This document shows, one piece after another, positions 579 through 37,554 of a stretch of DNA of 64,000 nucleotides. The notes under the pieces were generated by a model. It did not search any database and was not told the DNA's origin. It worked only from the letters and a program-made list of their open reading frames with translations. The first letter of the stretch is position 1. Each line of letters starts with the position of its first letter. The stretch covers positions 22,445 to 86,444 of the IMG/VR virus record IMGVR_UViG_3300005289_000003; one strand, given 5' to 3'. The position numbers and the translations under genes are program-made. The stretch is from a virus.

Positions 579-809
579 ATGGTTACCATTTACTTCCCTG
601 CCTACACAGCTAAGTTCAAGCTTCAGGATCGGGTTTACCTGACCAACAAGATTTCATCAGGTCTGGGGACTGTAGTCGGCATCCACGCTCCATGGTCGAT
701 TGGCTTTGTAAGCGTTGGCGTTCGATACTCCGTCTCCTGGGATCGGAACAGGAAGACTCTCAACGGTCCGGCCATGGAATCCGAAGAGGAATTGTCTAAG
801 GTGATCTGA
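579..809 (+). CDS. hypothetical protein
   Basis: Strong SD AAGGAGGAG before ATG; TGATG coupling to next ORF. Confidence 0.75.
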   Translation: MVTIYFPAYTAKFKLQDRVYLTNKISSGLGTVVGIHAPWSIGFVSVGVRYSVSWDRNRKTLNGPAMESEEELSKVI

Positions 810-1030
810 TGCCCAGAGCTAAGGCGACTCATCCTTTCCACCTGGTTCAGGTCGGTATTCCTTCGTACAACCCGCTAGAAGAGAAGCCTGTCTTGCGCAT
901 CACTGCGATAGACGAAAAAGACGGCAGGTTATTGGAGGGAGACTTCACCCCAGAGGAATTTAGAGTCTGGGCAGCCTCCTTGAACAAGTGGGCTGATCTA
1001 TACGACGATATGGTTAGTCGCAAGAAGTAA
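809..1030 (+). CDS. hypothetical protein
   Basis: Stop/start overlap with upstream ORF. Confidence 0.7.
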   Translation: MPRAKATHPFHLVQVGIPSYNPLEEKPVLRITAIDEKDGRLLEGDFTPEEFRVWAASLNKWADLYDDMVSRKK

Positions 1031-1629: not shown

Positions 1630-1811
1630 GTTTCCTTCAGGGAATTGATGCCCCAGGATTTGCGCCATGCGTCCTGGGAGTCCCTGAAGGAGCGGCAGGG
1701 AAGGAAGCGCGGGCAATCCCCCACACGTGCCCGTGAGACTCTGGCTCCCCGTGGTTCCCTGATTGGACGACAGGGTTAATCTTCGTGGTAGCTTCCTTCC
1801 CTGTCAGTTAG

Positions 1812-1887
1812 GCCCCTGTAGCCAAGTTCGGGGAAGGCATCCGTCTTATACGCGGAAGATACGTTGGTTCAAATCCAACCAGGGGTA
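1812..1887 (+). tRNA. tRNA-Ile(TAT)
   Basis: Acceptor GCCCCTG/CAGGGGT, anticodon arm TCCGT-CT-TAT-AC-GCGGA, T loop TTCAAAT. Confidence 0.88.
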
Positions 1888-2196: not shown

Positions 2197-2269
2197 TCCC
2201 CTGTGGTCTAATCTGGCAAGACATCGGATTTTGGTTCCGATCATCTAGGTTCAAATCCTGGCAGGGGAG
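2197..2269 (+). tRNA. tRNA-Gln(TTG)
   Basis: Acceptor TCCCCTG/CAGGGGA, anticodon arm TCGGA-TT-TTG-GT-TCCGA. Confidence 0.93.
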
Positions 2270-2294
2270 CGGCATTGCGAAAGGAGGATTGCGA

Positions 2295-2891
2295 ATGCCG
2301 GGTTTCAACCCTGATGGCTCTTATAGAGTCTTTGATTCTGAAGCGGAAAGACTAGAAAACCAAGAGGCTGTAAGAAGAATCATTCAGGGTTTGCACACCA
2401 AGTATCCTGACCCGAGGGTAAGCCCACGTCCGGGTAATCCTGAAAAATGGGTTGGGAGTCTGAAGATGCCCAAAAAGATAGAGTTCAAAGATGGTGTGTT
2501 CCAATACGTGGGACCGCCAACCAAATCGGAAGGTACTGAAAACAAAATGGCGCGTGACAGTGGTATGGACGTCAAGAGCTACAGCCCGTCGGACCCCAAG
2601 TTCGCCAGTGACGAGACTCCTTTCGAAGTCGGCCAGATCATCTCCATCGTGGGTCGCCACGGCGAGAGCGGTACCCACCTGCTGATCACGGACGTTCAGG
2701 CAGACACGGAGGTTCGTCACGAGGGTTCACCGGTCGGTGGCACCTACTACACCGGCTACGCTTCCAACGATTACGACCGTTCCACCCAGGTCATCAAGGT
2801 GGAGAACGGCACGGCCGTGACCGTGTGGACCGAGTACGACGTTCCGGTTACCCCGAAGGGTCTCCAGTCGCTTTCCTTCCCGAAGCGGTGA
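2295..2891 (+). CDS. hypothetical protein (possible internal start at 2547)
   Basis: SD AAGGAGG before ATG 2295; the part from ATG 2547 is strongly biased to C/G-ending codons. Confidence 0.7.
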   Translation: MPGFNPDGSYRVFDSEAERLENQEAVRRIIQGLHTKYPDPRVSPRPGNPEKWVGSLKMPKKIEFKDGVFQYVGPPTKSEGTENKMARDSGMDVKSYSPSDPKFASDETPFEVGQIISIVGRHGESGTHLLITDVQADTEVRHEGSPVGGTYYTGYASNDYDRSTQVIKVENGTAVTVWTEYDVPVTPKGLQSLSFPKR

Positions 2892-2980
2892 CCCTGACCT
2901 GATACCCAGGTCTAGATAAGCTCCTACCGGTCGACAGACGACATAAGCCCTGTTACGGCAACGTCGGGCCGGTAGGTCTA

Positions 2981-3052
2981 GCCTCTATAGCTCAACGGAT
3001 AGAGCACCGTGCTACGAACGCGGGTGTCCAGGTTCGATTCCTGGTAGAGGTA
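2981..3052 (+). tRNA. tRNA-Arg(ACG)
   Basis: Anticodon arm CCGTG-CT-ACG-AA-CGCGG. Confidence 0.93.
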
Positions 3053-3218
3053 CGCAATAAAACTTCCAGCAATGGCTATAGGGTCGATCCGGACGTCTCC
3101 CGGTAGGTTGCTGGTTGGCTTGTATGACACGGGTGAGCAATTGCTATTGTGGAACTTGCCTCCACAAAGAACCAACCCTCCCAAGGCATGGGCTCAGAAT
3201 GGTTGGCCGTGTCATTAT

Positions 3219-3292
3219 TCCCCGTTAGCTCAACTAGGCAGAGCAACGCACTGTTAATGCGTCGGTTGAATGTTCGAATCATTCACGGGGAG
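3219..3292 (+). tRNA. tRNA-Asn(GTT)
   Basis: Acceptor TCCCCGT/ACGGGGA, anticodon arm ACGCA-CT-GTT-AA-TGCGT. Confidence 0.93.
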
Positions 3293-3295
3293 CCT

Positions 3296-3442
3296 AGTCC
3301 CCAATGCGTCAAACTGATTGCCGATATTTGTAAGGTCGTGGTATCGCAGCATGAGGCAAGGTAGGTTGTAGCTATGTTTTCGCACCTTGGACATAGTTAT
3401 ACGGTGCTCCTAACCAATAGACCTTCCTGCGCATTGGGGACT
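3296..3442 (+). ncRNA. putative structured ncRNA closed by a 13-bp stem
   Basis: AGTCCCCAATGCG (3296-3308) pairs with CGCATTGGGGACT (3430-3442); internal hairpin; no plausible ORF. Confidence 0.45.
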
Positions 3443-3477
3443 TCAAAGCATCCTGACGTCAGTCAGGAGCGAAGCAT

Positions 3478-3724
3478 CCTAGGGAGAGTGATACGCCAAC
3501 ACCACTAATACGTGTCCCGTGAGCCCTAGGTAAGTCGGGACGTTGGCAGATTGGGTAAAAGGGCAAGCTTCCGTTTAGGTGGTGACAGCCGAGAGAAGAA
3601 GCCTGGGCACCCTAGGGTTAGATGAGGCAATATAGCGTTGACCTGACCCGTAGGACTGTCACCCTGTAGCGCGATGGAAGAATACGCATGCGCGATAGTC
3701 GTACTTCTAGGGTGCCACCCAATC
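3478..3724 (+). ncRNA. putative multi-pseudoknot ncRNA
   Basis: Six complementary segment pairs of 6-10 bp, several crossing (see findings). Confidence 0.45.
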
Positions 3725-3741
3725 GTTACATTGGAGACTAA

Positions 3742-4074
3742 ATGATAAAGTTTGGTGTCTTTGCTAAGACATTGGAAGAAGCCTGGTTCAAGGCTCACAA
3801 CGAAGCAAAGCTCTTCTTCGGTGAGTCCAGGGTTCATAGCGTCAGGTTTCTGGGTGGCACCAAAGAAGATGATGACGCCTATTACTGCACCTTTGCCGCA
3901 GACTTGGTAAATGATGCGGATGCGGTTTCTGAGTACTACCCAACGGGTCGGCCATCTTCTCCGCCACCTTTCGAACCTCTGACTACTCCTCTGCCACTCT
4001 TGGAGGCCACGGCGATAATCGGGCCTACCACAGAGGAAAGAGAAGTCCTCAGAGTCAGCTATACAACCGAATAG
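3742..4074 (+). CDS. hypothetical protein
   Basis: GGAG SD and ORF. Confidence 0.65.
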   Translation: MIKFGVFAKTLEEAWFKAHNEAKLFFGESRVHSVRFLGGTKEDDDAYYCTFAADLVNDADAVSEYYPTGRPSSPPPFEPLTTPLPLLEATAIIGPTTEEREVLRVSYTTE

Positions 4075-4081
4075 ATGGCTT

Positions 4082-4166
4082 GCCATGGATGCACGCATGG
4101 GACGTGCGCCAGTCTGTAGAACTGGTGTCTAACAAGGCTAAGTAGGTTCGATTCCTACCCGTGGCA
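4082..4166 (+). tRNA. tRNA-Tyr(GTA), atypical D arm
   Basis: Anticodon arm CCAGT-CT-GTA-GA-ACTGG, long variable arm, 5-bp D stem GCACG/CGTGC, A at position 8. Confidence 0.85.
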
Positions 4167-4168
4167 CT

Positions 4169-4275
4169 GGAGACAATGAGGATAGAGCAGAGTCCCTAAC
4201 CCGTAAGGGTGGGACGGTTTCCATAGCTGGCCACCGGCGAAACTCTGCTTTCACGGTTCAATTCCGGAGTCTCCT
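4169..4275 (+). ncRNA. tRNA-like element A (acceptor and T arm; long helix in place of D/anticodon arms)
   Basis: GGAGAC/GTCTCC; TCACGG-TTCAATT-CCGGA; related to element B at 6042. Confidence 0.6.
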
Positions 4276-4301
4276 CTATTCAAAAACTATAAGGAGTATT
4301 T

Positions 4302-4511
4302 GTGGGCAGAGCTACACACACGACAACCACGATTAGGCGAATCATTGTTGGTCAAGAGTTCTATCTCTCTATCGACGGAGTCACCGCTTACAAGCTCCTG
4401 ACCAAGTCAGACATTGGTGGAGCAAGCTACAACGTCACCTTCAAGCGTGCAGACAATGAAGGTGAAACCGAGCATGGAGACTGGCCGTACAACACCAAGG
4501 TCTACATCTGA
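4302..4511 (+). CDS. hypothetical small protein
   Basis: AAGGAG SD before GTG. Confidence 0.7.
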   Translation: MGRATHTTTTIRRIIVGQEFYLSIDGVTAYKLLTKSDIGGASYNVTFKRADNEGETEHGDWPYNTKVYI

Positions 4512-4816
4512 CGGGGTCATGCCTGTTGGCCCGTTGCTGGTGAGCCTGTAGGCGAGCGGAGCACACCAGCCCAAAGAGGCTCACCTTTGCAGGGGTAGAG
4601 CCTCAATAGGTGGCCCCCGTGACGGTACCCAGAAGCCACGTGGTAGGGCTCTGGTGAGCTACCGGGGGCAGAGGCCCTAGGTTGTGTTCCAGCCCTTCCT
4701 AGGGCCTCTCAGACGTCTCTGTGGGAGCTTCCCTGTCCCCCCGTCAGGGCCACAGAGACAGGGGGAACCCTGGTGGGTTCCACTCCCCCCGGAATTCCTA
4801 GGGTTCCCCCGTTCAA

Positions 4817-4889
4817 GCGTCGTTAGCTTAATTGGTAGAGCTACGGTCTCCAAAACCGTCAGGTGAGGGTTCGAATCCCTTGCGGCGTG
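4817..4889 (+). tRNA. tRNA-Trp(CCA)
   Basis: Anticodon arm ACGGT-CT-CCA-AA-ACCGT. Confidence 0.92.
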
Positions 4890-4908
4890 CTCCAAAGGAG
4901 GAAACTAT

Positions 4909-5034
4909 ATGAGCAAAAATATATCTGGTATGGAGTGTGGCTGCATGCTGGTTATTGAGTACGGTAAAGCGCCGTACATCATCAGGCACGCTAATTGCAA
5001 GAAGGCCCACGGCACACCAGAGAAGAAGAATTGA
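4909..5034 (+). CDS. small CGC...CxxxH protein (41 aa, not in ORF track)
   Basis: AAGGAGG SD; MSKNISGMECGCMLVIEYGKAPYIIRHANCKKAH; paralog at 6843. Confidence 0.7.
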   Translation: MSKNISGMECGCMLVIEYGKAPYIIRHANCKKAHGTPEKKN

Positions 5035-5035
5035 C

Positions 5036-5539
5036 ATGACCATGTCAGATGCCGATCACATGCACCCGCATGTGGCTAGGGCTCTTCACGATGCTTTGAA
5101 GAGTGGGGACTACAAGCAAGGTCACAACTTCCTTCACAAGGTAATGAAGGACATAGGTGATCTTTACTGCTGCTTGGGTGTCCTTTGCCGGCTAGCCATT
5201 AACGCTGGCGTAGTGGTTCCTCAGGAAGAGTTCAATCTAGGGAACGGCAATCAGGTAGTCATCAAGTATGAAGGTGATGACGGGTGGCTTGGCCTGATAG
5301 TCAGTGAGTGGGCCGGAAAGCACGCTACTCCTTCTTATAGGCTTCCTCTCTGGTACGACGAAGAGAAGAAGATTCCTTTTGCTGGGGACCTTGACGAAGA
5401 AATGGACCGTATTACTCTGGCCATCTTGAATGATGGAGATAGCAATAGGTTCCATGGTCTGACATTCTCTCAAATAGCCGACATCGTTTTGTTCATGTGG
5501 GGATACGGCGATGAAGACGAAGTATCGGCTAACGATTAG
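5036..5539 (+). CDS. conserved phage hypothetical protein (YCCLGVLC motif)
   Basis: LKSGDYKQG...YCCLGVLC...LND...TFSQIAD pattern recalled from phage hypotheticals. Confidence 0.75.
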   Translation: MTMSDADHMHPHVARALHDALKSGDYKQGHNFLHKVMKDIGDLYCCLGVLCRLAINAGVVVPQEEFNLGNGNQVVIKYEGDDGWLGLIVSEWAGKHATPSYRLPLWYDEEKKIPFAGDLDEEMDRITLAILNDGDSNRFHGLTFSQIADIVLFMWGYGDEDEVSAND

Positions 5540-5670
5540 ACGGAGTAACGGAAGACTCGTTCGCGAATACGGCAACCTGAGCAAGTACGCGGCTAAAGTC
5601 CGTAGAGATGAACTAGAAGACAAATACGATTCCGGCTATTACGTCGAATTGACACCCGATAGGAAACCCA

Positions 5671-5958
5671 ATGCTGAATAATCCAGGTCTCGTCTACGTC
5701 TGCTACATGGTCAGTGGGGACCAGGAGCCACGGCCCATCAAGGTGGGTCTGACGTATGACGAAGCCTTGAAGGAAGTCAACGCGAATAAGAGGGCTGTCA
5801 AAACCGTACTCAGGTTCGCGTGGATCGCTGGCCTGTTCAGTAAGGAAGCGCGCAAGAACATGCAAACCCTGAAGGGTGTGAAGTACTACATCACGGGGTA
5901 CCGGCCCACGGCGGTCAACAACCTTGCCACGGTGGATGAGGAGTGGGCAGAACAATAA
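5671..5958 (+). CDS. hypothetical protein
   Basis: ORF with phage-like codon usage. Confidence 0.65.
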   Translation: MLNNPGLVYVCYMVSGDQEPRPIKVGLTYDEALKEVNANKRAVKTVLRFAWIAGLFSKEARKNMQTLKGVKYYITGYRPTAVNNLATVDEEWAEQ

Positions 5959-5966
5959 GGAAATAA

Positions 5967-6039
5967 GCCCCATTAGCTCAGTGGACAGAGCGACACCCTT
6001 CTAAGGTGAAGGCCGTAGGTTCGACTCCTACATGGGGTA
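5967..6039 (+). tRNA. tRNA-Arg(TCT)
   Basis: Acceptor GCCCCAT/ATGGGGT, anticodon loop CT-TCT-AA. Confidence 0.92.
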
Positions 6040-6041
6040 CG

Positions 6042-6140
6042 GGGGCACGATGTGGAAACGCGGGGAAGTAGGAAACAGTTTCTTCCTCCTTTATGTTTCC
6101 TATGATGACCGTTGTCACGGTTCGATTCCGGGGTGCCCCT
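6042..6140 (+). ncRNA. tRNA-like element B
   Basis: GGGGCAC/GTGCCCC; TCACGG-TTCGATT-CCGGG; followed by TCTATTCA as in element A. Confidence 0.6.
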
Positions 6141-6516
6141 CTATTCACTCTGAAGAGTGACCTGTAAGCACACCTATAAGTAGACTCTCCCTTCTGTCTG
6201 GCAGGATAAGAGCCACGGCTAGCATGCTGTCTGTGGTGACTGAAACTGCCCCGTACGCGGAGAATGGCAAAGGGAGCGCATGTCACGCCACTGTGGATGA
6301 GTCATAGCCCTACCGAGTGCGCCGGTTCTAAGGGGTTAGGCGTTCGTCCGGAAGAGCGCTGGAACGAATGAGGGCCTACTAGGTGGAGTCGATTGGACTA
6401 CTCGGGTCAGGTTGTCTAGGGTCTTAGAGCTGACGCAACCTGATGCAAAAGGGACGGGTAGGAGACTGAGAAGCCGATAATGTAGGCCCTCATTTGTTTT
6501 GTCCAAAGGAGGAAAA

Positions 6517-6843
6517 ATGACAGATTTCATTATTGGCTGGATTCTTCCACCATTGATGGTTATCGTGCTAGTAATCATGAATGTGTGTGGATACATGACA
6601 AAGAAGGGATACGATAAATACGTATGCCTGTCATGGGGAATAATGGCTATTTATTCTCTCGTCAAGGTTGATATCGGCGGGATAATCATCTACCTTACTT
6701 TTTCTCTTTATCACGGTTACAAGTGGTGGAAGAACCGCAAGGATGACGACTGGACCGACAAGGGTAACAAGCCAAAGCGGAAGCGTTCCCGTAACTGGGT
6801 TCCGAAGCTAAAGAACCCTGAACCAACAAAGTCGGTGGTGTAG
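6517..6843 (+). CDS. membrane protein
   Basis: AAGGAGG SD; hydrophobic segments and a basic tail. Confidence 0.75.
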   Translation: MTDFIIGWILPPLMVIVLVIMNVCGYMTKKGYDKYVCLSWGIMAIYSLVKVDIGGIIIYLTFSLYHGYKWWKNRKDDDWTDKGNKPKRKRSRNWVPKLKNPEPTKSVV

Positions 6844-6944
6844 TGGCGACCGAGAAGCGTCCGCTAAGTTGCGGTTGTGTCCTGGTATTCGTGGATGGCA
6901 AGTTTTCACATCAGGACGTTAAGAACTGCAACAGAGGGCATTAG
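6843..6944 (+). CDS. small CGC...CxxxH protein (33 aa, not in ORF track)
   Basis: TAGTG coupling; MATEKRPLSCGCVLVFVDGKFSHQDVKNCNRGH. Confidence 0.65.
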   Translation: MATEKRPLSCGCVLVFVDGKFSHQDVKNCNRGH

Positions 6945-7038
6945 TTATTAATGGGTGGGCGAGGAAGACACCGCGCGTGGTCGGTGCTTGGAAACCGCCC
7001 TATGCCTCTGCACCAGATAGCCAGAGGTAGCCACGCAT

Positions 7039-7125
7039 GGGGAGTTGGCAGAGTGGCCGAATGCACTAGTCTTGAAAACTAGAGGGGCCTTAAAACCCCC
7101 AAGGGTTCAAATCCCTTACTCCCTT
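7039..7125 (+). tRNA. tRNA-Ser(TGA)
   Basis: Anticodon arm CTAGT-CT-TGA-AA-ACTAG, long variable arm. Confidence 0.92.
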
Positions 7126-7126
7126 C

Positions 7127-7237
7127 GTGATACAAGAAGATGGTTGTACCTGCTGCGAGGATGGCGGGTTTACCGAGGGATATGGTAATAGCCATCGGTG
7201 CGGCAATTGTGGACACACTGAAGGAGCCCATAAGTAA
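7127..7237 (+). CDS. CxCC micro zinc-finger paralog 1 (36 aa)
   Basis: MIQEDGCTCCEDGGFTEGYGNSHRCGNCGHTEGAHK. Confidence 0.7.
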   Translation: MIQEDGCTCCEDGGFTEGYGNSHRCGNCGHTEGAHK

Positions 7238-7377
7238 TGGCCGAATGTACCTGTTGCACAAATGGTGCCTTTGTTGAAGGACTCAACCCGAACCTGTGTA
7301 ACAACTGCTTTCACCTGAAGTCGCTTCACTCCATCGTGGTGAGCTTCTTCAAGTTCTGGAATAGGATTAGCTTCTGA
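7237..7377 (+). CDS. CxCC micro zinc-finger paralog 2 (46 aa)
   Basis: TAATG coupling, AAGGAG SD; MAECTCCTNGAFVEGLNPNLCNNCFHLKSLH... Confidence 0.8.
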   Translation: MAECTCCTNGAFVEGLNPNLCNNCFHLKSLHSIVVSFFKFWNRISF

Positions 7378-7490
7378 TGGGTGTCTGTATCTGCTGCCTC
7401 TTTGGTGACTTCAAGGGTGGTGGCGAAAAGGACATCAAGGATATATGCGGGTGTGGCCATCACAGGAAAGACCACCAGAAGAGGTTTTAA
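7377..7490 (+). CDS. CxCC micro zinc-finger paralog 3 (37 aa)
   Basis: TGATG coupling; MGVCICCLFGDFKGGGEKDIKDICGCGHHRKDH. Confidence 0.8.
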   Translation: MGVCICCLFGDFKGGGEKDIKDICGCGHHRKDHQKRF

Positions 7491-7603
7491 TGTTCTTCTT
7501 TCTCTTCGGAGCATGTAGTTGCTGCTTGGCAGGCTCCTTCTCTGAGGGTGGCAACGACGGTAAGTGCTCCCTCTGCAATCACACGTACGGAGCACACACC
7601 TAG
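7490..7603 (+). CDS. CxCC micro zinc-finger paralog 4 (37 aa)
   Basis: TAATG coupling; MFFFLFGACSCCLAGSFSEGGNDGKCSLCNHTYGAHT. Confidence 0.8.
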   Translation: MFFFLFGACSCCLAGSFSEGGNDGKCSLCNHTYGAHT

Positions 7604-7608
7604 AAATA

Positions 7609-7697
7609 GGTAGGGTGGCAGAGTGGCCTATTGCGCGTCCCTGCTAAGGACGTAAGGGAACAACACACCTTCCAGGGTTCGAATCCCTGCCCTACCG
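7609..7697 (+). tRNA. tRNA-Ser(GCT)
   Basis: Anticodon arm CGTCC-CT-GCT-AA-GGACG, long variable arm. Confidence 0.93.
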
Positions 7698-7725
7698 CGC
7701 ACCATTAAAAAGGAGGAAATAAAGG

Positions 7726-7842
7726 ATGCTTTGGTACCTATTTGCAGGTTGCTACTGTTGCTTCATCGGTGACTTCATCGAGAGTGATAGCGACCGGAAA
7801 ACCTGCAAGAGATGTACGCATGTGAGGGGTGCTCATTCTTAA
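7726..7842 (+). CDS. CxCC micro zinc-finger paralog 5 (38 aa)
   Basis: AAGGAGG SD; MLWYLFAGCYCCFIGDFIESDSDRKTCKRCTHVRGAHS. Confidence 0.8.
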   Translation: MLWYLFAGCYCCFIGDFIESDSDRKTCKRCTHVRGAHS

Positions 7843-7988
7843 TGGGCTCTTGCTCATGCTGTAACTCTGGTGGATTCGAAGCTAGCGCTACAGCCCTCAT
7901 TTGCAAACATTGTCTTCATGTCAGGTCTGCTCACTCTGGCTACTTCCACTACATGGCTTCCTTCCTCCGCTACATGACAGGAAGGTAA
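7842..7988 (+). CDS. CxCC micro zinc-finger paralog 6 (48 aa)
   Basis: TAATG coupling; MGSCSCCNSGGFEASATALICKHCLHVRSAH... Confidence 0.8.
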   Translation: MGSCSCCNSGGFEASATALICKHCLHVRSAHSGYFHYMASFLRYMTGR

Positions 7989-8065
7989 ATAGCGTGGAGT
8001 ATGACGGGCCTCCACGGTGGTGAACGTGCGGCCGTAGGTAGCCACCGAAACAAATCCCGTCAAAT

Positions 8066-8141
8066 GCCCCCGTAGCTTAGCCGGGTTTAAAGCGCCACCC
8101 TGTCAAGGTGGAGACCGAGGGTTCAAATCCCTTCGGGGGCG
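8066..8141 (+). tRNA. tRNA-Asp(GTC)
   Basis: Anticodon arm CCACC-CT-GTC-AA-GGTGG. Confidence 0.94.
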
Positions 8142-8288
8142 CGTGCTACGTAATGGCAATTGCGTAGAGTCTGTGGTCAGCAACCGCCAATTGCTCCGCG
8201 CGACAGACACGCATTACGTGTGGCCGAGTGACCGGCAATGCTTTGGTGGTGGAGATGGTCACGCTGCCTACCAGAGAGCCACACGGAA

Positions 8289-8362
8289 CGGGTCATAGCT
8301 CAATTTGGTGGAGCGCTTGGTTTGGGACCAAGAGGTTACAGGTTCAAATCCTGTTGGCCCGA
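8289..8362 (+). tRNA. tRNA-Pro(TGG)
   Basis: Acceptor CGGGTCA/TGGCCCG, anticodon arm CTTGG-TT-TGG-GA-CCAAG. Confidence 0.93.
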
Positions 8363-8458
8363 CGCGAAAGGAGGAATGATGCGTAGATTCCTGGAAGAGC
8401 TTCTAGAGAGAATCGCGGACATGAACGACAACGACACGAGAGAGCTTGGCAAGGATCG

Positions 8459-10719: not shown

Positions 10720-10863
10720 GAGGTACCGAAGCGAAGAAGACGGATACTTCAATGGATAAACCGTAGGTCGTTGGTTCAAATCCAACCCTCCCAACCATTG
10801 GGAGGTAGCTCAGTGGTTAGAGCAACGGTGAAAAGACTGTCTTCGATTATTTCTCGGTACCTC
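10720..10863 (+). ncRNA. Y RNA unit 1, YrlA-type (circularly permuted tRNA module)
   Basis: Terminal stem GAGGTACCGA/TCGGTACCTC, GAAGCG motif; T arm, acceptor closed by ACCAT loop, then D arm; upstream of Ro60. Confidence 0.85.
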
Positions 10864-15008: not shown

Positions 15009-15082
15009 GCCCACATATCCCAATTGGTAGAGGAGACGGATTCAAACTCCGTATGTTGTCAGTTCAAATCTGACTGTGGGTA
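15009..15082 (+). tRNA. tRNA-Leu(CAA), short variable arm
   Basis: Anticodon arm ACGGA-TT-CAA-AC-TCCGT; resembles the short actinobacterial Leu(CAA). Confidence 0.88.
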
Positions 15083-15110
15083 CGTCGTCTCTGACTGTGG
15101 GTACGTCGTC
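15069..15110 (+). repeat. 21-bp tandem direct repeat of the tRNA-Leu 3' end
   Basis: TCTGACTGTGGGTACGTCGTC twice. Confidence 0.9.
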
Positions 15111-29934: not shown

Positions 29935-29968
29935 AGAAGGGCCGTGGCTTTTGCCACGGCCCTTTCTC
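29934..29968. terminator. bidirectional terminator between convergent operons
   Basis: AAGGGCCGTGGC-TTTT-GCCACGGCCCTT. Confidence 0.8.
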
Positions 29969-30726: not shown

Positions 30727-31003
30727 TCCTAAAGCCTCTCAAACTGCCGTAGGGGACCTGAGGCAGCCTCCCGGGGTGTTCGTACCGGGCAGACGTTCTC
30801 AGGTCCCCTACGGGGCTTCTAGGCCCCTTCCTGGGGCCTCACTGAACCAGGGTGGTCACTACGTCCCTGATCACTTGCTTGCGATTCCAGTGCTTGCCCG
30901 TACCCGTCTTCAGGTCCATGGACATCAGGCCCAATTGCACGGACAGATCGTGCAGCGCTTGAGCAAGCTCTAGGTCTTCATCCGTTGGCTTCCGGCTACC
31001 CAT

Positions 31004-32546: not shown

Positions 32547-32597
32547 GCGCTCCCCTACCTGGGATCAAACCCGCAAGCTCTAAGGCTAGGAAGGGGA
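32547..32597 (-). ncRNA. mini-tRNA-like spacer M4
   Basis: TCCCCT/AGGGGA stem, small hairpin, GGG-TTTGAT-CCC T-like arm, GCG tail. Confidence 0.4.
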
Positions 32598-32604
32598 TCC
32601 GGCC

Positions 32605-32847
32605 CTAAAGCCGGGATAGGTCTTCCTTGACGTCGTGGCCGATGTGCTGGACATCAACGCTGACGTGGTGAATGTAGTGGCCGAAACCGTGAAGACCACC
32701 CATGGTGGTAATGCTGGCGTGGACGGCAGGTTCCGCGTGAATCACCAGGGCCATGAACTCCACCGCCAGGATGAAGAGGAAGAACAGCAGAGACGATCCA
32801 CTGTCGATCCGGTAGAAGGCAAGCTTGTCACGGGTGGCCTGAACCAT
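32605..32847 (-). CDS. His-rich membrane/secreted protein
   Basis: AAGGAGG SD; hydrophobic helix. Confidence 0.65.
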   Translation of the reverse strand: MVQATRDKLAFYRIDSGSSLLFFLFILAVEFMALVIHAEPAVHASITTMGGLHGFGHYIHHVSVDVQHIGHDVKEDLSRL

Positions 32848-32880
32848 TTTCTTTCCTCCTTGTTTGTTGAACTTGCATTG

Positions 32881-32931
32881 CGCGCCCTATTCGCCATCAA
32901 AGGCCACGGTGTCACTGCTGACCCGTAGGGC
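32881..32931 (-). ncRNA. mini-tRNA-like spacer M3
   Basis: GCCCTA/TAGGGC stem, hairpin, GCC-TTTGAT-GGC, GCG tail. Confidence 0.4.
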
Positions 32932-33101
32932 TTGTGTTCACTCCTTCTCGGTGAACTTAAACGCTGGTGGGAAATCTACTATCTGCCCGTCAGGAAGTTC
33001 CAACTTGGTCCACATGACCCACTGAGTTGGTATTACTATCCTTCCGACTATTTCGAAAGCAGAAGTCCCATACACGGTTTCCACTGAAACTTTGTAGGTC
33101 A

Positions 33102-33323
33102 TCACGGTATGTTCCCTCTTACTACATTGAACTTCTCGTCTCTAGCTGTAACCCAGAGACGTTCCGTTAGCGTGCTGGTGTCTATTGCCGTGAAGCCAAC
33201 ATCATCGATAAACAACCCTGGGGTTATCTCTATCTGAGTGTCAGTGTCTATCTCCTTAACTACCCAGTAGGTTTTATCAGAGAGGAAGACATCACCTTTC
33301 ATCAACTGGTGAGCCTCTTTCAC
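33102..33323 (-). CDS. hypothetical protein
   Basis: GTGA overlap, GGAGG SD. Confidence 0.6.
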   Translation of the reverse strand: MKEAHQLMKGDVFLSDKTYWVVKEIDTDTQIEITPGLFIDDVGFTAIDTSTLTERLWVTARDEKFNVVRGNIP

Positions 33324-33532
33324 TGCTCCTCCACGATCTTCCAGAACGACGCGCGGTAGTTTCCGGAGGGAAGGTCACCGGAGTGGACCTTCACACGGAG
33401 TTCATAGAACCCCTTGACCGTGTTGTAACCGTAGCCGTTGATGGTTCCGAAGATGGGCACATTCCCCATCTGGAAGGTGAATCGAACCTTCTTGCCGATT
33501 GCGTATTCAACCGGCTTGATTACCTTTGGCAT
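33320..33532 (-). CDS. hypothetical protein
   Basis: AAGGAGG SD. Confidence 0.7.
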   Translation of the reverse strand: MPKVIKPVEYAIGKKVRFTFQMGNVPIFGTINGYGYNTVKGFYELRVKVHSGDLPSGNYRASFWKIVEEQ

Positions 33533-33561
33533 TTCCTTCCCTCCTTTGTTTTGCCTTGTTA

Positions 33562-33613
33562 CGTGGGTTTGCTGGATTCGAACCAGGCCATCCGCTCCAT
33601 CTAGCGCTAACCC
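33562..33613 (-). ncRNA. mini-tRNA-like spacer M2 (no anticodon arm)
   Basis: GGGTT/AACCC, CGCT-AGATGG-AGCG, CTGG-TTCGAAT-CCAG, ACG tail. Confidence 0.6.
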
Positions 33614-33619
33614 TGGGGC

Positions 33620-33817
33620 TTACCAGCCCCTTGCCTTCTTGTACTCTCGTTGACTCTTGCGGCTACTGAAGTAACGCCCGACCTTTTCGAACTGGTTACC
33701 GACCATGATGATCAGAATATGCAGCCAAAAAACAATGGCAATCAATGCCAAGACTGCAAGGACTGCACAAATTGGCGCAAAGAAACCGATTAGGAAAGCG
33801 TTCGCTGATTGGTCCAT
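33620..33817 (-). CDS. small membrane protein
   Basis: Long hydrophobic segment. Confidence 0.55.
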   Translation of the reverse strand: MDQSANAFLIGFFAPICAVLAVLALIAIVFWLHILIIMVGNQFEKVGRYFSSRKSQREYKKARGW

Positions 33818-33957
33818 GGTCAGTCCATTTCCGCAAGCTTGCCGATCAGGCTAAAGATGAAGTAGAACAAAGCGAAAGCGCCTAGTCCCCCGAAGATTCC
33901 AAGGATTGGCGCCAGGATCTCCATCATTTGACTTCCTCCTTTTAGTTGATTTCCTTA

Positions 33958-34008
33958 CGTGGGTGCCGCCGGATTTGAACCGGTTAACGCTCCATCTAGC
34001 GCGGTCCC
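33958..34008 (-). ncRNA. mini-tRNA-like spacer M1 (no anticodon arm)
   Basis: GGGACCG/CGGCACCC, CGCT-AGATGG-AGCG, CCGG-TTCAAAT-CCGG, ACG tail. Confidence 0.6.
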
Positions 34009-34018
34009 TGCCTGTTAC

Positions 34019-35065
34019 TTAGAACGCCCGTGCCACGTCCCATGCCTTGTCCAGCGCGCTGGTAAGCGCGGGAACCGACTCCAGGACACGGCGCGCGTTG
34101 GCCTCTGCCCTGGTCTCGCCAGAGCGCGTCTGCACGCGCCCCGGAAGGTGCTGGGTGACTTCCACCGTGGCGTTCAACCACCCTGCCGCCGTGCCGCTAA
34201 TGTCCGCCGTAGTGGCCGAACGGAGGGCACCGAAAAGGGCCTCCCGCTGCTTCTCCATCACGGTCTGGCCACGCTTGGAGTCCTTCTCTCCCCACCCGTA
34301 AAGGTCGGTCCACGCGGCCAAAGCCTGATCGGCCGTGACCCGAGTGTTGAGAAGTTCCCGATAGTCCGCGATCCACTTCTCAAGGTCAGCGTCACCCTTG
34401 GCAAGGATCTTCTGAACCGTCGCGTCAATCTTCGACGGAGCTAGGGCACTGTGCTTGATGCTCACAGCACCCATGACCTTGGAAGAAGTCATCAGGTTCG
34501 CGCACACCCGCCGGATCCCCCGAAGAGAAACCCTCAGGGCCGTCTTGCCGTTGTTGCCAAGGTCCAGTTGCCACCGGAAAGCGATAACCTCCCGGCTTTC
34601 AACCTGACGCTTGGCCACATCCGAATACGCCGTAGTCGTGAAGTCCGCTGACTTGTGTTCGAACACCAACCGGGTAACCGGCCCTGGAACGATGCTCATC
34701 AGTGGGTGACCCGTGGCGGTAATAGCGTCCACCAGGGGAACAACCTCTTCCGGAAGGATGAAGTTGAAGCCCTCCGAAGCCTGCCCGAACCGAACCGATT
34801 CCCGATCCGGCCCGAAGTTGTGGACGATGATTGCCGCTTCGGACGCTGGCGCCATGTGGATGTTTCCGCGTGAGTCCATCGCGCTCTGGGGAGCGGTTTC
34901 CGCTTCCCACCCGAAAAGACCCGCGTCGTTCATGGCCTGGTTCGCGTTCTCCATGTTGCCCTGAACCGTCGACAGAAGCTCAAACGGGTCAAGAACCCCG
35001 TTAGCAGCAACGGCGAATTCCTGGCGGTCCAGACCAGCGGAGAAGATTTCCATTTCGCGAGACAT
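34019..35065 (-). CDS. DUF932-family protein
   Basis: AGLFGW, RRVCANL, SIKHS, SGTAAGWLNATVEVTQH motifs; strong SD. Confidence 0.75.
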   Translation of the reverse strand: MSREMEIFSAGLDRQEFAVAANGVLDPFELLSTVQGNMENANQAMNDAGLFGWEAETAPQSAMDSRGNIHMAPASEAAIIVHNFGPDRESVRFGQASEGFNFILPEEVVPLVDAITATGHPLMSIVPGPVTRLVFEHKSADFTTTAYSDVAKRQVESREVIAFRWQLDLGNNGKTALRVSLRGIRRVCANLMTSSKVMGAVSIKHSALAPSKIDATVQKILAKGDADLEKWIADYRELLNTRVTADQALAAWTDLYGWGEKDSKRGQTVMEKQREALFGALRSATTADISGTAAGWLNATVEVTQHLPGRVQTRSGETRAEANARRVLESVPALTSALDKAWDVARAF

Positions 35066-35100
35066 TCCATTTCCTCCTTATAGTGTTGCATTACCTTGCG

Positions 35101-35173
35101 CGCTCCAAAGGGGAATCCAACCCCTGTCTTCTGGTTGAGAGCCAGAGATCCTAAGCAATTGAACGATTGGAGC
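35101..35173 (-). tRNA. tRNA-Glu(CTC), atypical T loop
   Basis: GCTCCAA/TTGGAGC; TCTGG-CT-CTC-AA-CCAGA; T loop TTGGATT. Confidence 0.75.
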
Positions 35174-35346
35174 TAGGAGGATTTAGTCACTCACTATTTA
35201 GTTAGCGGATTGGGGTCACTGCCCGTCCGTCCGGAATTCCGGCTTCCACCCGCCCCGTAGCACCCGCGCGTCCTGGTTCGAACCTTCGGGCTATTGCGTC
35301 CGGCCGTTGGTGGCTTTTTTGTTTTCGTGTTCCCCGTGCAACACCA

Positions 35347-35397
35347 ACTATGGGGGACGGACACCCCGCCAGTCAAGAACTTTCTTCAAGATTTTTT
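35347..35397 (-). promoter_or_regulatory. sigma70-type early promoter
   Basis: AAAAAATCTTG..AAAGTTC-TTGACT-18 nt-CATAGT. Confidence 0.65.
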
Positions 35398-35607
35398 ATA
35401 AACCTGTGACCTGGGGTTTTTGGTAATCAGCAACCAGGACGGGCAACCGGACGGCCCGGAACCTGCCTCCCAGGTGGAGGGACGCGCGCCTACGCGCGTA
35501 CGTGCGTGCGCGTACGTGGGAGGGCCTGAGAGCCACCAGGAGCACTGAACCTGCCCCCGGACATGCCAAAGGCCCGGACCGTTGGGGTCCGGGCCTCTCT
35601 GTGGCTC

Positions 35608-37447: not shown

Positions 37448-37520
37448 GCCTCCTTAGTTCAGTGGCCTAGAACCTCTGCCTTGTAAGCAGATAACGAGAG
37501 TTCAAATCTCTCAGGAGGCT
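37448..37520 (+). tRNA. tRNA-Thr(TGT)
   Basis: GCCTCCT/AGGAGGC; TCTGC-CT-TGT-AA-GCAGA. Confidence 0.92.
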
Positions 37521-37554
37521 CTTTCCCTAACCGGAAACTTGATTATGAGGAAGT

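Follow-up and report, generated by a model that had tools for sequence, protein, structure and literature searches.

The 64,000-nucleotide (nt) stretch of DNA analyzed here, hereafter the window, spans bases 22445-86444 of virus record IMGVR_UViG_3300005289_000003 (86,444 bp), the complete genome of an uncultured phage from soil, with direct terminal repeats, 51% G+C and 25 tRNA genes. Its minus strand holds an operon in which blocks of closely spaced open reading frames (ORFs) are set apart by five structured elements, namely a tRNA-Glu(CUC) gene and four short elements designated M1, M2, M3 and M4, two of which (M1 and M2) look like tRNAs stripped of the anticodon arm. A first-pass annotation of this DNA had proposed that host tRNA-processing enzymes cut the phage message at these elements, and that proposal is weighed below. 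The host is probably an actinobacterium, because the phage DnaE is 42-44% identical to DnaE of Gordonia and Brevibacterium phages; by this protein the nearest cultured phages are Gordonia phages GMA6, DalanDe, ChisanaKitsune and FlyingTortilla and Brevibacterium phage Cantare.

All five elements lie in a minus-strand block of ~6.7 kb flanked on both sides by plus-strand blocks (Table 1). Because a promoter-like site is found at one end and a terminator-like hairpin at the other, the region from 35,345 to 29,937 would be expected to be co-transcribed as a single 5.4-kb RNA; between the elements, a site scan returned one promoter-like and one terminator-like site, and no promoter or terminator with a U tract. 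The elements fill all the long spacers of this operon and delimit five blocks of genes, within which genes overlap or abut and have weaker Shine-Dalgarno (SD) sequences. The M elements begin 6-10 nt downstream of a stop codon (M1 10, M2 6, M3 6), and tRNA-Glu, unlike the M elements, is preceded by a leader. The distance from discriminator to ATG is 36 nt for tRNA-Glu, 33 for M1, 32 for M2, 36 for M3 and 41 for M4, and every downstream ATG has a perfect AAGGAGG, 15-22 nt from the tail of the element, in agreement with the ribosome-binding site reported earlier at roughly 15-25 nt.

Table 1. Features of the minus-strand operon and its borders, in order of transcription (positions in the window).
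Feature	Position	Strand	Basis
Intrinsic terminator of the upstream unit	35568-35598	-	Seen as Thr_leader-like hairpin
Sigma-70-type promoter-like site at operon head (TTGACT, 18 nt, CATAGT)	35347-35376	-	Consensus scan only
Anti-SD heptamer UCCUCCU, 1 nt before the 5′ end of tRNA-Glu	35175-35181	-	Minimum free energy and centroid folds, motif count
tRNA-Glu(CUC), gene anticodon CTC	35100-35173	-	ARAGORN; Rfam RF00005, 54 bits
Block 1: DUF932 gene, 348 aa	34019-35065	-	Pfam PF06067; protein homologues
M1, anticodon-less mini-tRNA	33958-34008	-	15-mer, T arm, alignment, covariance model, RNAalifold
Block 2: two adjoining small membrane-type ORFs, 35 and 65 aa, 2-nt gap	33620-33927	-	ORF list
Hairpin GGGGCU-GGUA-AGCCCC across stop codon, 1 nt from M2 start	33615-33630	-	Fold prediction
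M2, paralogue of M1	33562-33613	-	15-mer, T arm, alignment, covariance model, RNAalifold
Block 3: three overlapping small ORFs, 70, 73 and 55 aa, translationally coupled	32938-33532	-	ORF list
M3, Y-shaped fold	32881-32931	-	Minimum free energy, hairpin scan, in-context fold
Block 4: single 80-aa ORF	32605-32847	-	ORF list
M4, Y-shaped fold	32547-32597	-	Minimum free energy, hairpin scan, in-context fold
Block 5: rest of operon, closely spaced genes of 79, 128, 103, 185 and 165 aa	30229-32509	-	ORF list
Operon-end terminator-like hairpin, 12 bp	29937-29964	-	Computed scan

M1, M2 and their analogue in an independent phage

M1 and M2 possess the anatomy first ascribed to them on the minus strand, i.e., a shared 15-mer forming a D-like hairpin, canonical T arms and an acceptor-like stem, with no anticodon arm. 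The 15-mer (GCGCTAGATGGAGCG) is identical in both elements, which hold its only two exact copies in the window, near-matches being at chance level; the T arms are GGTTCAAATCC in M1 and GGTTCGAATCC in M2. Local alignment of the two elements gives z=15 against shuffles, with 0/500 shuffles as good, and a covariance model built from M1 and M2 detects no further copy anywhere in the genome. The remaining canonical T arms of the 86-kb sequence are all located in tRNAs or in tRNA-like RNAs of the plus-strand tRNA region.

With a length of 48-49 nt, M1 and M2 correspond to the “top half” of a tRNA and are devoid of both anticodon arm and variable loop. Their acceptor-like stem comprises seven layers (GGG.CCG/CGG..CCC with a 1x2 internal loop in M1; GGGUUAG/CAAACCC with one A.A in M2) and is followed directly, nucleotides 8-9 being absent, by the D-like hairpin with its AGAUGG loop, drawn by RNAalifold as CGCU-AGAUGG-AGCG; for comparison, the D arm of the phage tRNA-Phe reads GCUC-AGAUGGAA-GAGC. 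A linker of 4-6 nt leads to the T arm, which has a 4-bp stem and the loop UUCRAAU (CCGG-UUCAAAU-CCGG in M1; CUGG-UUCGAAU-CCAG in M2), and both elements end with A-CG. Conservation extends over the D-like hairpin (15/15), the T loop, the first three acceptor pairs, A73 and the trailer ACGUAA, while the linkers are unrelated and two stem positions, one in the acceptor and one in the T stem, differ on both sides, from C:G to U:A. The T arms contain G53, U54-U55-C56-R57-A58 and C61 (GG-UUCAAAU-CC and GG-UUCGAAU-CC), and in both elements the motif GGTTCRANYCC lies outside any canonical tRNA and within an acceptor-like closing stem, as it does in t-elements. An acceptor/T-arm stack, a GG...UUC loop pair of the elbow-forming kind, A at -1, a discriminator and a C-G trailer are all retained, the trailer being that of the phage's own tRNAs.

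An element of the same design exists in an independent phage. A pattern scan of IMG/VR led to contig IMGVR_UViG_3300027987_000047 (58% G+C), which has just two weak protein matches with the phage studied here. Constraints in the pattern were limited to part of the D strand and the T loop; acceptor closure, 5′ D strand and T stem could vary freely. The analogue (846-900, minus strand) reads GGGCGCG-GCGC-UAAGUUGGA-GCGC-CACUUG-CUGG-UUCGAAU-CCAG-CGUGCCC-A and combines a perfect 7-bp acceptor-like stem, a D hairpin nearly identical to that of M1 and M2, and a T arm equal to that of M2, again with no anticodon arm. It follows a DUF932 gene, an NT5C gene and a leader of roughly 400 nt and precedes the ATG of a small gene by 34 nt. 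Its fold has an ensemble frequency of 89% and z -3.3, and it scores 32 bits on the model built from M1 and M2 only; we estimate the joint chance of its free parts at the order of 1e-4 over the candidates seen. When M1, M2 and the analogue are taken together, 95% of cells pair, compared with 32-44% in slid controls, three pairs differ on both sides, and RNAalifold, unaided, recovers the same Y-shaped tRNA-like fold. Two genes further on in the same contig (224-270, minus strand) is a second Y-shaped element (z -2.1) with the 7-nt loop UGCAAGC, a T-loop variant; in the second phage, too, a canonical element is followed by a degenerate one. As a separate observation, the sequence ACACCACACCAACAGGrGGTA is repeated before the start codon in every spacer of that contig.

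M3, M4, tRNA-Glu(CUC) and the other tRNAs of the phage

M3 is composed of a closing stem GCCCUA/UAGGGC, a 7-8-bp hairpin and the hairpin GCC-UUUGAU-GGC, followed by G-CG, and M4 of a closing stem UCCCCUUCCU/AGGUAGGGGA and two 3-bp hairpins, one of which is GGG-UUUGAU-CCC, followed by G-CG. The minimum free energy (MFE) structure of each is a three-way junction with a terminal closing stem (z -2.2 for M3 and -1.7 for M4). The TTTGAT loops pointed out in the first-pass annotation are indeed present, and M3 and M4 account for two of the five hairpins in the genome in which such a loop is closed by three G-C pairs; the likeness to tRNA that was drawn from them is weak and could not be demonstrated. 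M3 and M4 share with M1 and M2 their slot and topology, not the tRNA signature. A common origin of M3 and M4 was considered as well and is unproven, their alignment not rising above chance.

The element before the DUF932 gene is a genuine tRNA, as had been claimed, and it does carry an odd T loop. This loop, UUGGAUU (G56), is matched in the D loop (AAUUGCUUA, with G18 and C19) by a change that converts the near-universal 19:56 tertiary pair from G:C to C:G; the other phage tRNAs all have GG and UUC, and tRNA-Glu(CUC) alone among the 25 has C19:G56. Because the change in the T loop is compensated in the D loop, its sequence argues that this tRNA is functional. The anti-SD heptamer that precedes it is the sole copy of UCCUCCU in the 5.4-kb operon RNA and is predicted, in both MFE and centroid folds, to pair across the tRNA with the SD of the DUF932 gene (35073-35079), an observation made post hoc with a p of about 1e-3. 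A cut at the 5′ end of tRNA-Glu could, on these folds, free the DUF932 SD, and the 5′ strand of M4 has a like potential.

The ends of the elements relate them to the tRNAs of this phage. All five have A at -1 and an N-CG tail, G-CG in the case of tRNA-Glu, which bears out the earlier remark that their ACG/GCG ends resemble those of the CCA-less phage tRNAs: CCA is encoded in 0/25 tRNAs, C74 is present in 24/25 and C74-G75 in 15/25. A phage-encoded CCA-adding enzyme was not found. Eight of the 25 tRNAs are positioned 16-51 nt upstream of an SD-led ORF, and therefore tRNA maturation must already cut the messages of this phage, defining mRNA ends on the plus strand too. The plus-strand tRNAs that stand before ORFs with strong SDs (2197-8363 and 37448-37521) are Gln, Trp, Ser-GCU, Pro, Thr, Phe and Leu-UAG. 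Elsewhere in this set, the last 14 nt of tRNA-Leu(CAA) and 4 nt of its trailer (CTGACTGTGGGTACGTCG) are directly repeated 3 nt downstream (15070-15108, plus strand).

Proposed tRNA-like punctuation and competing readings

The reading favored here, to which we give an even chance, is that the elements are tRNA-like punctuation cut by ribonuclease (RNase) P and/or RNase Z. M1 and M2 would descend from tRNAs by loss of nucleotides 8-9 and of both variable loop and anticodon arm, and would have kept what tRNA end-processing enzymes read, i.e., the coaxial acceptor/T-arm stack, the D-loop/T-loop elbow, the discriminator and the C-G trailer. RNase P is known to clamp the elbow and to measure the acceptor/T stack, which is also used by RNase Z and the CCA enzyme (PMC4919913). 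Host RNase P would cut the 5′ edge of the elements, and/or RNase Z, or an equivalent 3′ pathway, would cut after the discriminator. Such cuts would split the polycistronic RNA into translationally coupled gene blocks, each endowed with a perfect SD and a defined leader of 32-41 nt. In two cases, tRNA-Glu and M4, cutting would in addition remove the anti-SD stretch that may otherwise mask the next ribosome-binding site. The stub might then cap the 3′ end of the upstream RNA or the 5′ end of the downstream RNA, and the hairpin at 33615-33630 possibly protects the upstream RNA at its 3′ end once M2 is cut. As to the original proposal of cutting by tRNA enzymes, the anatomy of M1 and M2 and the true tRNA in a like slot speak in its favor, as do the regular placement of the elements, the compensatory stem changes, the N-CG tails, the eight phage tRNAs ahead of SD-led ORFs, the analogue in an independent phage and the single anti-SD heptamer next to tRNA-Glu; M3 and M4 are not demonstrably of the tRNA kind, and the decoy RNAs it also envisioned found no specific support.

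A precedent exists in plant mitochondria, where t-elements, found by means of the motif GGTTCRANYCC, have ends that coincide with mapped mRNA termini, direct cuts by RNase P and RNase Z, and carry non-templated C, CC or CCA (PMC1920247). Like M1 and M2, t-elements are tRNA-derived folds that are not tRNAs, bear a GGTTCRANYCC T arm and occur between coding regions of long transcripts, where they are taken to direct the RNase P/Z cuts that make mRNA ends (Forner et al., 2007; PMC1920247), and in mitochondrial punctuation true tRNAs do the same job at other junctions. The elements described here differ by their setting, a phage operon with SD-led genes, by their length of 48-49 nt, by their fixed distance to the start codon and by the complete absence of the anticodon arm, whereas t-elements are non-canonical cloverleaves with mapped ends. 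The mascRNA and MEN-beta RNAs of MALAT1 and NEAT1 are likewise tRNA-like folds embedded in a long RNA, where RNase P and RNase Z cut and in this way set the terminus of the long RNA and free a small CCA-tailed RNA (PMC4919922; PMC8457004), but these belong to eukaryotic nuclear long non-coding RNAs (lncRNAs), form a cloverleaf with a reduced anticodon arm and occur once per transcript. Bacterial RNase P also acts on non-tRNA sites in polycistronic or phage RNAs, as it cuts intercistronic regions of E. coli operon mRNA (Li and Altman, 2003, cited in PMC4919922) and the precursor of the C4 RNA of phages P1 and P7 (Hartmann et al., 1995, cited in PMC4919922); those sites are not known to be recognizable tRNA copies with canonical T arms or to form a regular series of spacers.

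The tRNA-like domain (TLD) of transfer-messenger RNA (tmRNA), and in particular the actinophage-encoded “TLD-only” RNA of DS6A (PMC4131195), shares with M1 and M2 an acceptor stem, a T arm, a D-loop analogue and the lack of an anticodon stem-loop. The third pair of M1, M2 and the analogue, however, is G3:C70 and not the alanine identity pair G3:U70, ARAGORN makes no tmRNA call, and the two copies lie within a protein-coding operon. The t-elements, mascRNA and the DS6A TLD-only RNA are the nearest published items; full-text searches turned up no account of anticodon-less tRNA-like spacers in phage operons.

In the early genes of phage T7, RNase III sites between genes let the host enzyme cut the polycistronic early RNA into defined mRNAs. 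The first-pass annotation had drawn this comparison, which stands as to function, both being structured intercistronic signals for a host RNase, and fails as to structure, since at T7 sites the enzyme recognizes the double-stranded RNA of a long irregular hairpin, while the phage elements are three-way junctions with tRNA motifs and helices of <=10 bp. A T7-type RNase III site calls for a near-continuous helix of about 20 bp, and the longest helix of M1-M4 has 10 layers with a mismatch. In YrlA-type Y RNA a tRNA-like domain is joined to a Ro60-binding helix; in M1 and M2 nothing of the element extends past the closing stem, which has a stop codon on one side and an SD on the other, and this region gave no match to an Rfam family at E<=10. 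The tails of M1-M4 (ACGUAAGG, ACGUAACA, GCGCAAUG and GCGCAGUA) are not those of intrinsic terminators, in which a U tract follows a G+C-rich hairpin, and no terminator-like site lies there.

Several findings weigh against tRNA-like punctuation. The tRNA-like folds of M1 and M2 lie 3.2 and 5.7 kcal/mol above the MFE, with z near 0, although the energy model omits tertiary elbow contacts. Each has a mismatch or bulge, and the stack of acceptor and T stems, which has 12 layers in tRNA, reaches 11 in both M2 and the IMG/VR analogue and, with a bulge, 11/12 in M1. None of M1-M4 forms a cloverleaf with an anticodon arm, and none is called by ARAGORN or matched by Rfam RF00005 even at E<=10. M3 and M4 have 6-nt loops with no GG/UUC elbow and no T arm of the tRNA kind, and their sequence similarity to each other and to M1 and M2 is not above chance in shuffled alignments. 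The Y fold of M4 is not the best in context, where its pyrimidine 5′ strand pairs with the SD of the next gene (-41.3 vs. -38.4 kcal/mol for the Y fold). In 2.4 Mb of viral DNA, a descriptor for anticodon-less tRNA-like folds matched as often with a shifted 3′ strand as with the true one and is no evidence of a wide family. The only sequencing runs that contain the sequence come from the source soil DNA sample, with no RNA run listed among them; the two DNA runs of that sample show no variants.

Some of these points would suit a purely structural role in cis, independent of tRNA enzymes, in which the elements stabilize 3′ or 5′ ends, insulate translation units or act as SD-masking switches, their tRNA features being a matter of ancestry. 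The M elements all form closed three-way junctions and begin 6-10 nt past a stop codon, the 5′ strand of M4 competes for the next SD, M3 and M4 are without tRNA signatures, and stop-codon hairpins adjoin M2, M3 and M4; the stability of the hairpins upstream of the elements is not above that of background windows. Such a role would leave unexplained, however, why conservation in M1 and M2 falls on the T loop, GG loop, discriminator and C-G trailer, and why a functional tRNA, certain to be excised, occupies the same slot, and we regard it as unlikely, if worth keeping in view.

Somewhat less probable is a role in trans, in which M1 and M2 would be released, CCA-tailed and accumulated as “top-half” tRNA decoys or sponges, the cutting of the mRNA serving only to produce them. 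The targets could be SmpB, toxins that modify the acceptor end, CCA-adding or T-loop-modifying enzymes, or the phage's own Ro60 system. The D hairpin (15/15) and the T loop are conserved beyond structural need, and the D-hairpin sequence recurs in an unrelated phage; the phage is rich in other tRNA-like RNAs, with T arms outside tRNAs, and titration of SmpB has been proposed as the role of a TLD-only RNA in mycobacteriophage DS6A (PMC4131195). On the other hand, RNAs lacking G3:U70 are not alanine-chargeable TLD mimics, those lacking an anticodon loop cannot decoy anticodon nucleases, and only two copies exist, with no dedicated promoter. The presence of M3, M4 and a true tRNA in equivalent slots with no shared sequence points instead to a positional role in cis.

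Functionless remnants, with M1 and M2 as decaying tRNA pseudogenes and M3 and M4 as chance folds, are to be expected in a phage with 25 tRNAs, and the stem mismatches and thermodynamically unremarkable folds would fit. This explanation appears improbable in the face of two copies with the same clean deletion architecture, which have diverged in the linker and undergone compensatory changes in the stems, of their regular placement, and of the same architecture in an unrelated phage. Signals at the DNA level (phage-specific promoters, attP cores derived from tRNA 3′ halves, or mobile intergenic repeats), which might be suggested by repeated conserved boxes in spacers upstream of genes and by the frequency of tRNA 3′ halves as att cores, are very improbable indeed, as compensatory changes are an RNA signature, no promoter-like site is present at the elements and no further copies occur in the genome, and the attP version is rejected because the genome, complete and with direct terminal repeats, lacks a tyrosine integrase.

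Should tRNA-like punctuation be borne out, bacterial viruses would join mitochondria and a few eukaryotic lncRNAs, the settings in which this strategy is known so far. Spacers left without annotation in operons of small early genes would then have an explanation, and codon supply would no longer be the sole reason for tRNA genes to lie dispersed among phage ORFs. For synthetic operons, the elements would offer processing signals that are both compact and portable. The anti-SD/SD pairing predicted to span tRNA-Glu further suggests a switch in which maturation of the tRNA would license translation of the next gene. In a more daring extension, which we rate as a long shot, three stages of a single innovation would stand side by side, i.e., a working tRNA, tRNAs reduced to what RNase P/Z and the CCA enzyme recognize, and bare Y-junctions, all acting as punctuation that unmasks ribosome-binding sites when cut, and the released CCA-tailed mini-tRNAs would also sponge host factors that bind the acceptor end or the elbow, such as defence toxins or SmpB.

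Wider searches and minor observations

Searches for further members of this group returned little beyond the analogue. A 24-base pattern covering M1, M2 and the analogue matched nothing else in IMG/VR, nor did 596 Gb of prokaryote genomes contain a match; the exact 15-mer had 20 matches in IMG/VR, as expected by chance, and looser patterns matched mostly tmRNA and tRNA. BLAST of M1, M2 and the analogue against phages retrieved only T arms of ordinary tRNAs, and in the five cultured phages nearest by DnaE, T-arm motifs were absent beyond three chance matches in coding DNA. Two close relatives seen at the protein level are 84% and 75% identical in DUF932; comparison of the region and of DUF932 with 50,697 phage records (megablast, blastn and tblastn) gave no match, scans of IMG/VR with DUF932 and DnaE gave one distant locus only, and a scan of genome contigs with the 75% relative gave no match. 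A metagenome scan recovered seven DUF932 loci of 46-52% identity, in none of which the gene has a tRNA or mini-tRNA as its neighbor.

Within the operon itself, the spacer between a TGA stop (30839-30841) and the last gene contains a 17-nt hairpin followed by an irregular long hairpin of ~71 nt (GCCCCGUAGGGGACCUGAG ... CUCAGGUCCCCUACGGC; 30746-30838, minus strand), which is an intercistronic structure of a different type and possibly an RNase III-type site.

The scans also brought up unusual T-arm structures in other viral sequences. IMGVR_UViG_2932604667_000002 (~2220-2300, plus strand) contains tandem canonical T arms 20 nt apart (GCAGGTTCGAATCCTGC ... GCCGGTTCGAATCCGGC) with no ARAGORN call, and IMGVR_UViG_3300009553_000007 (~1795-1835, minus strand) a perfect 16-bp hairpin with a T loop at its tip (TGGAGCGAGCGAAGGG-TTCGAAT-CCCTTCGCTCGCTCCA), which resembles an acceptor/T minihelix of excess length. 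Two further viral sequences, L227 (~10720-10790, plus strand) and L249 (~590-640, minus strand), hold tRNA-like sequences with normal D and T arms in which a 4-bp stem with a GAAA or UUCG tetraloop takes the place of the anticodon arm.

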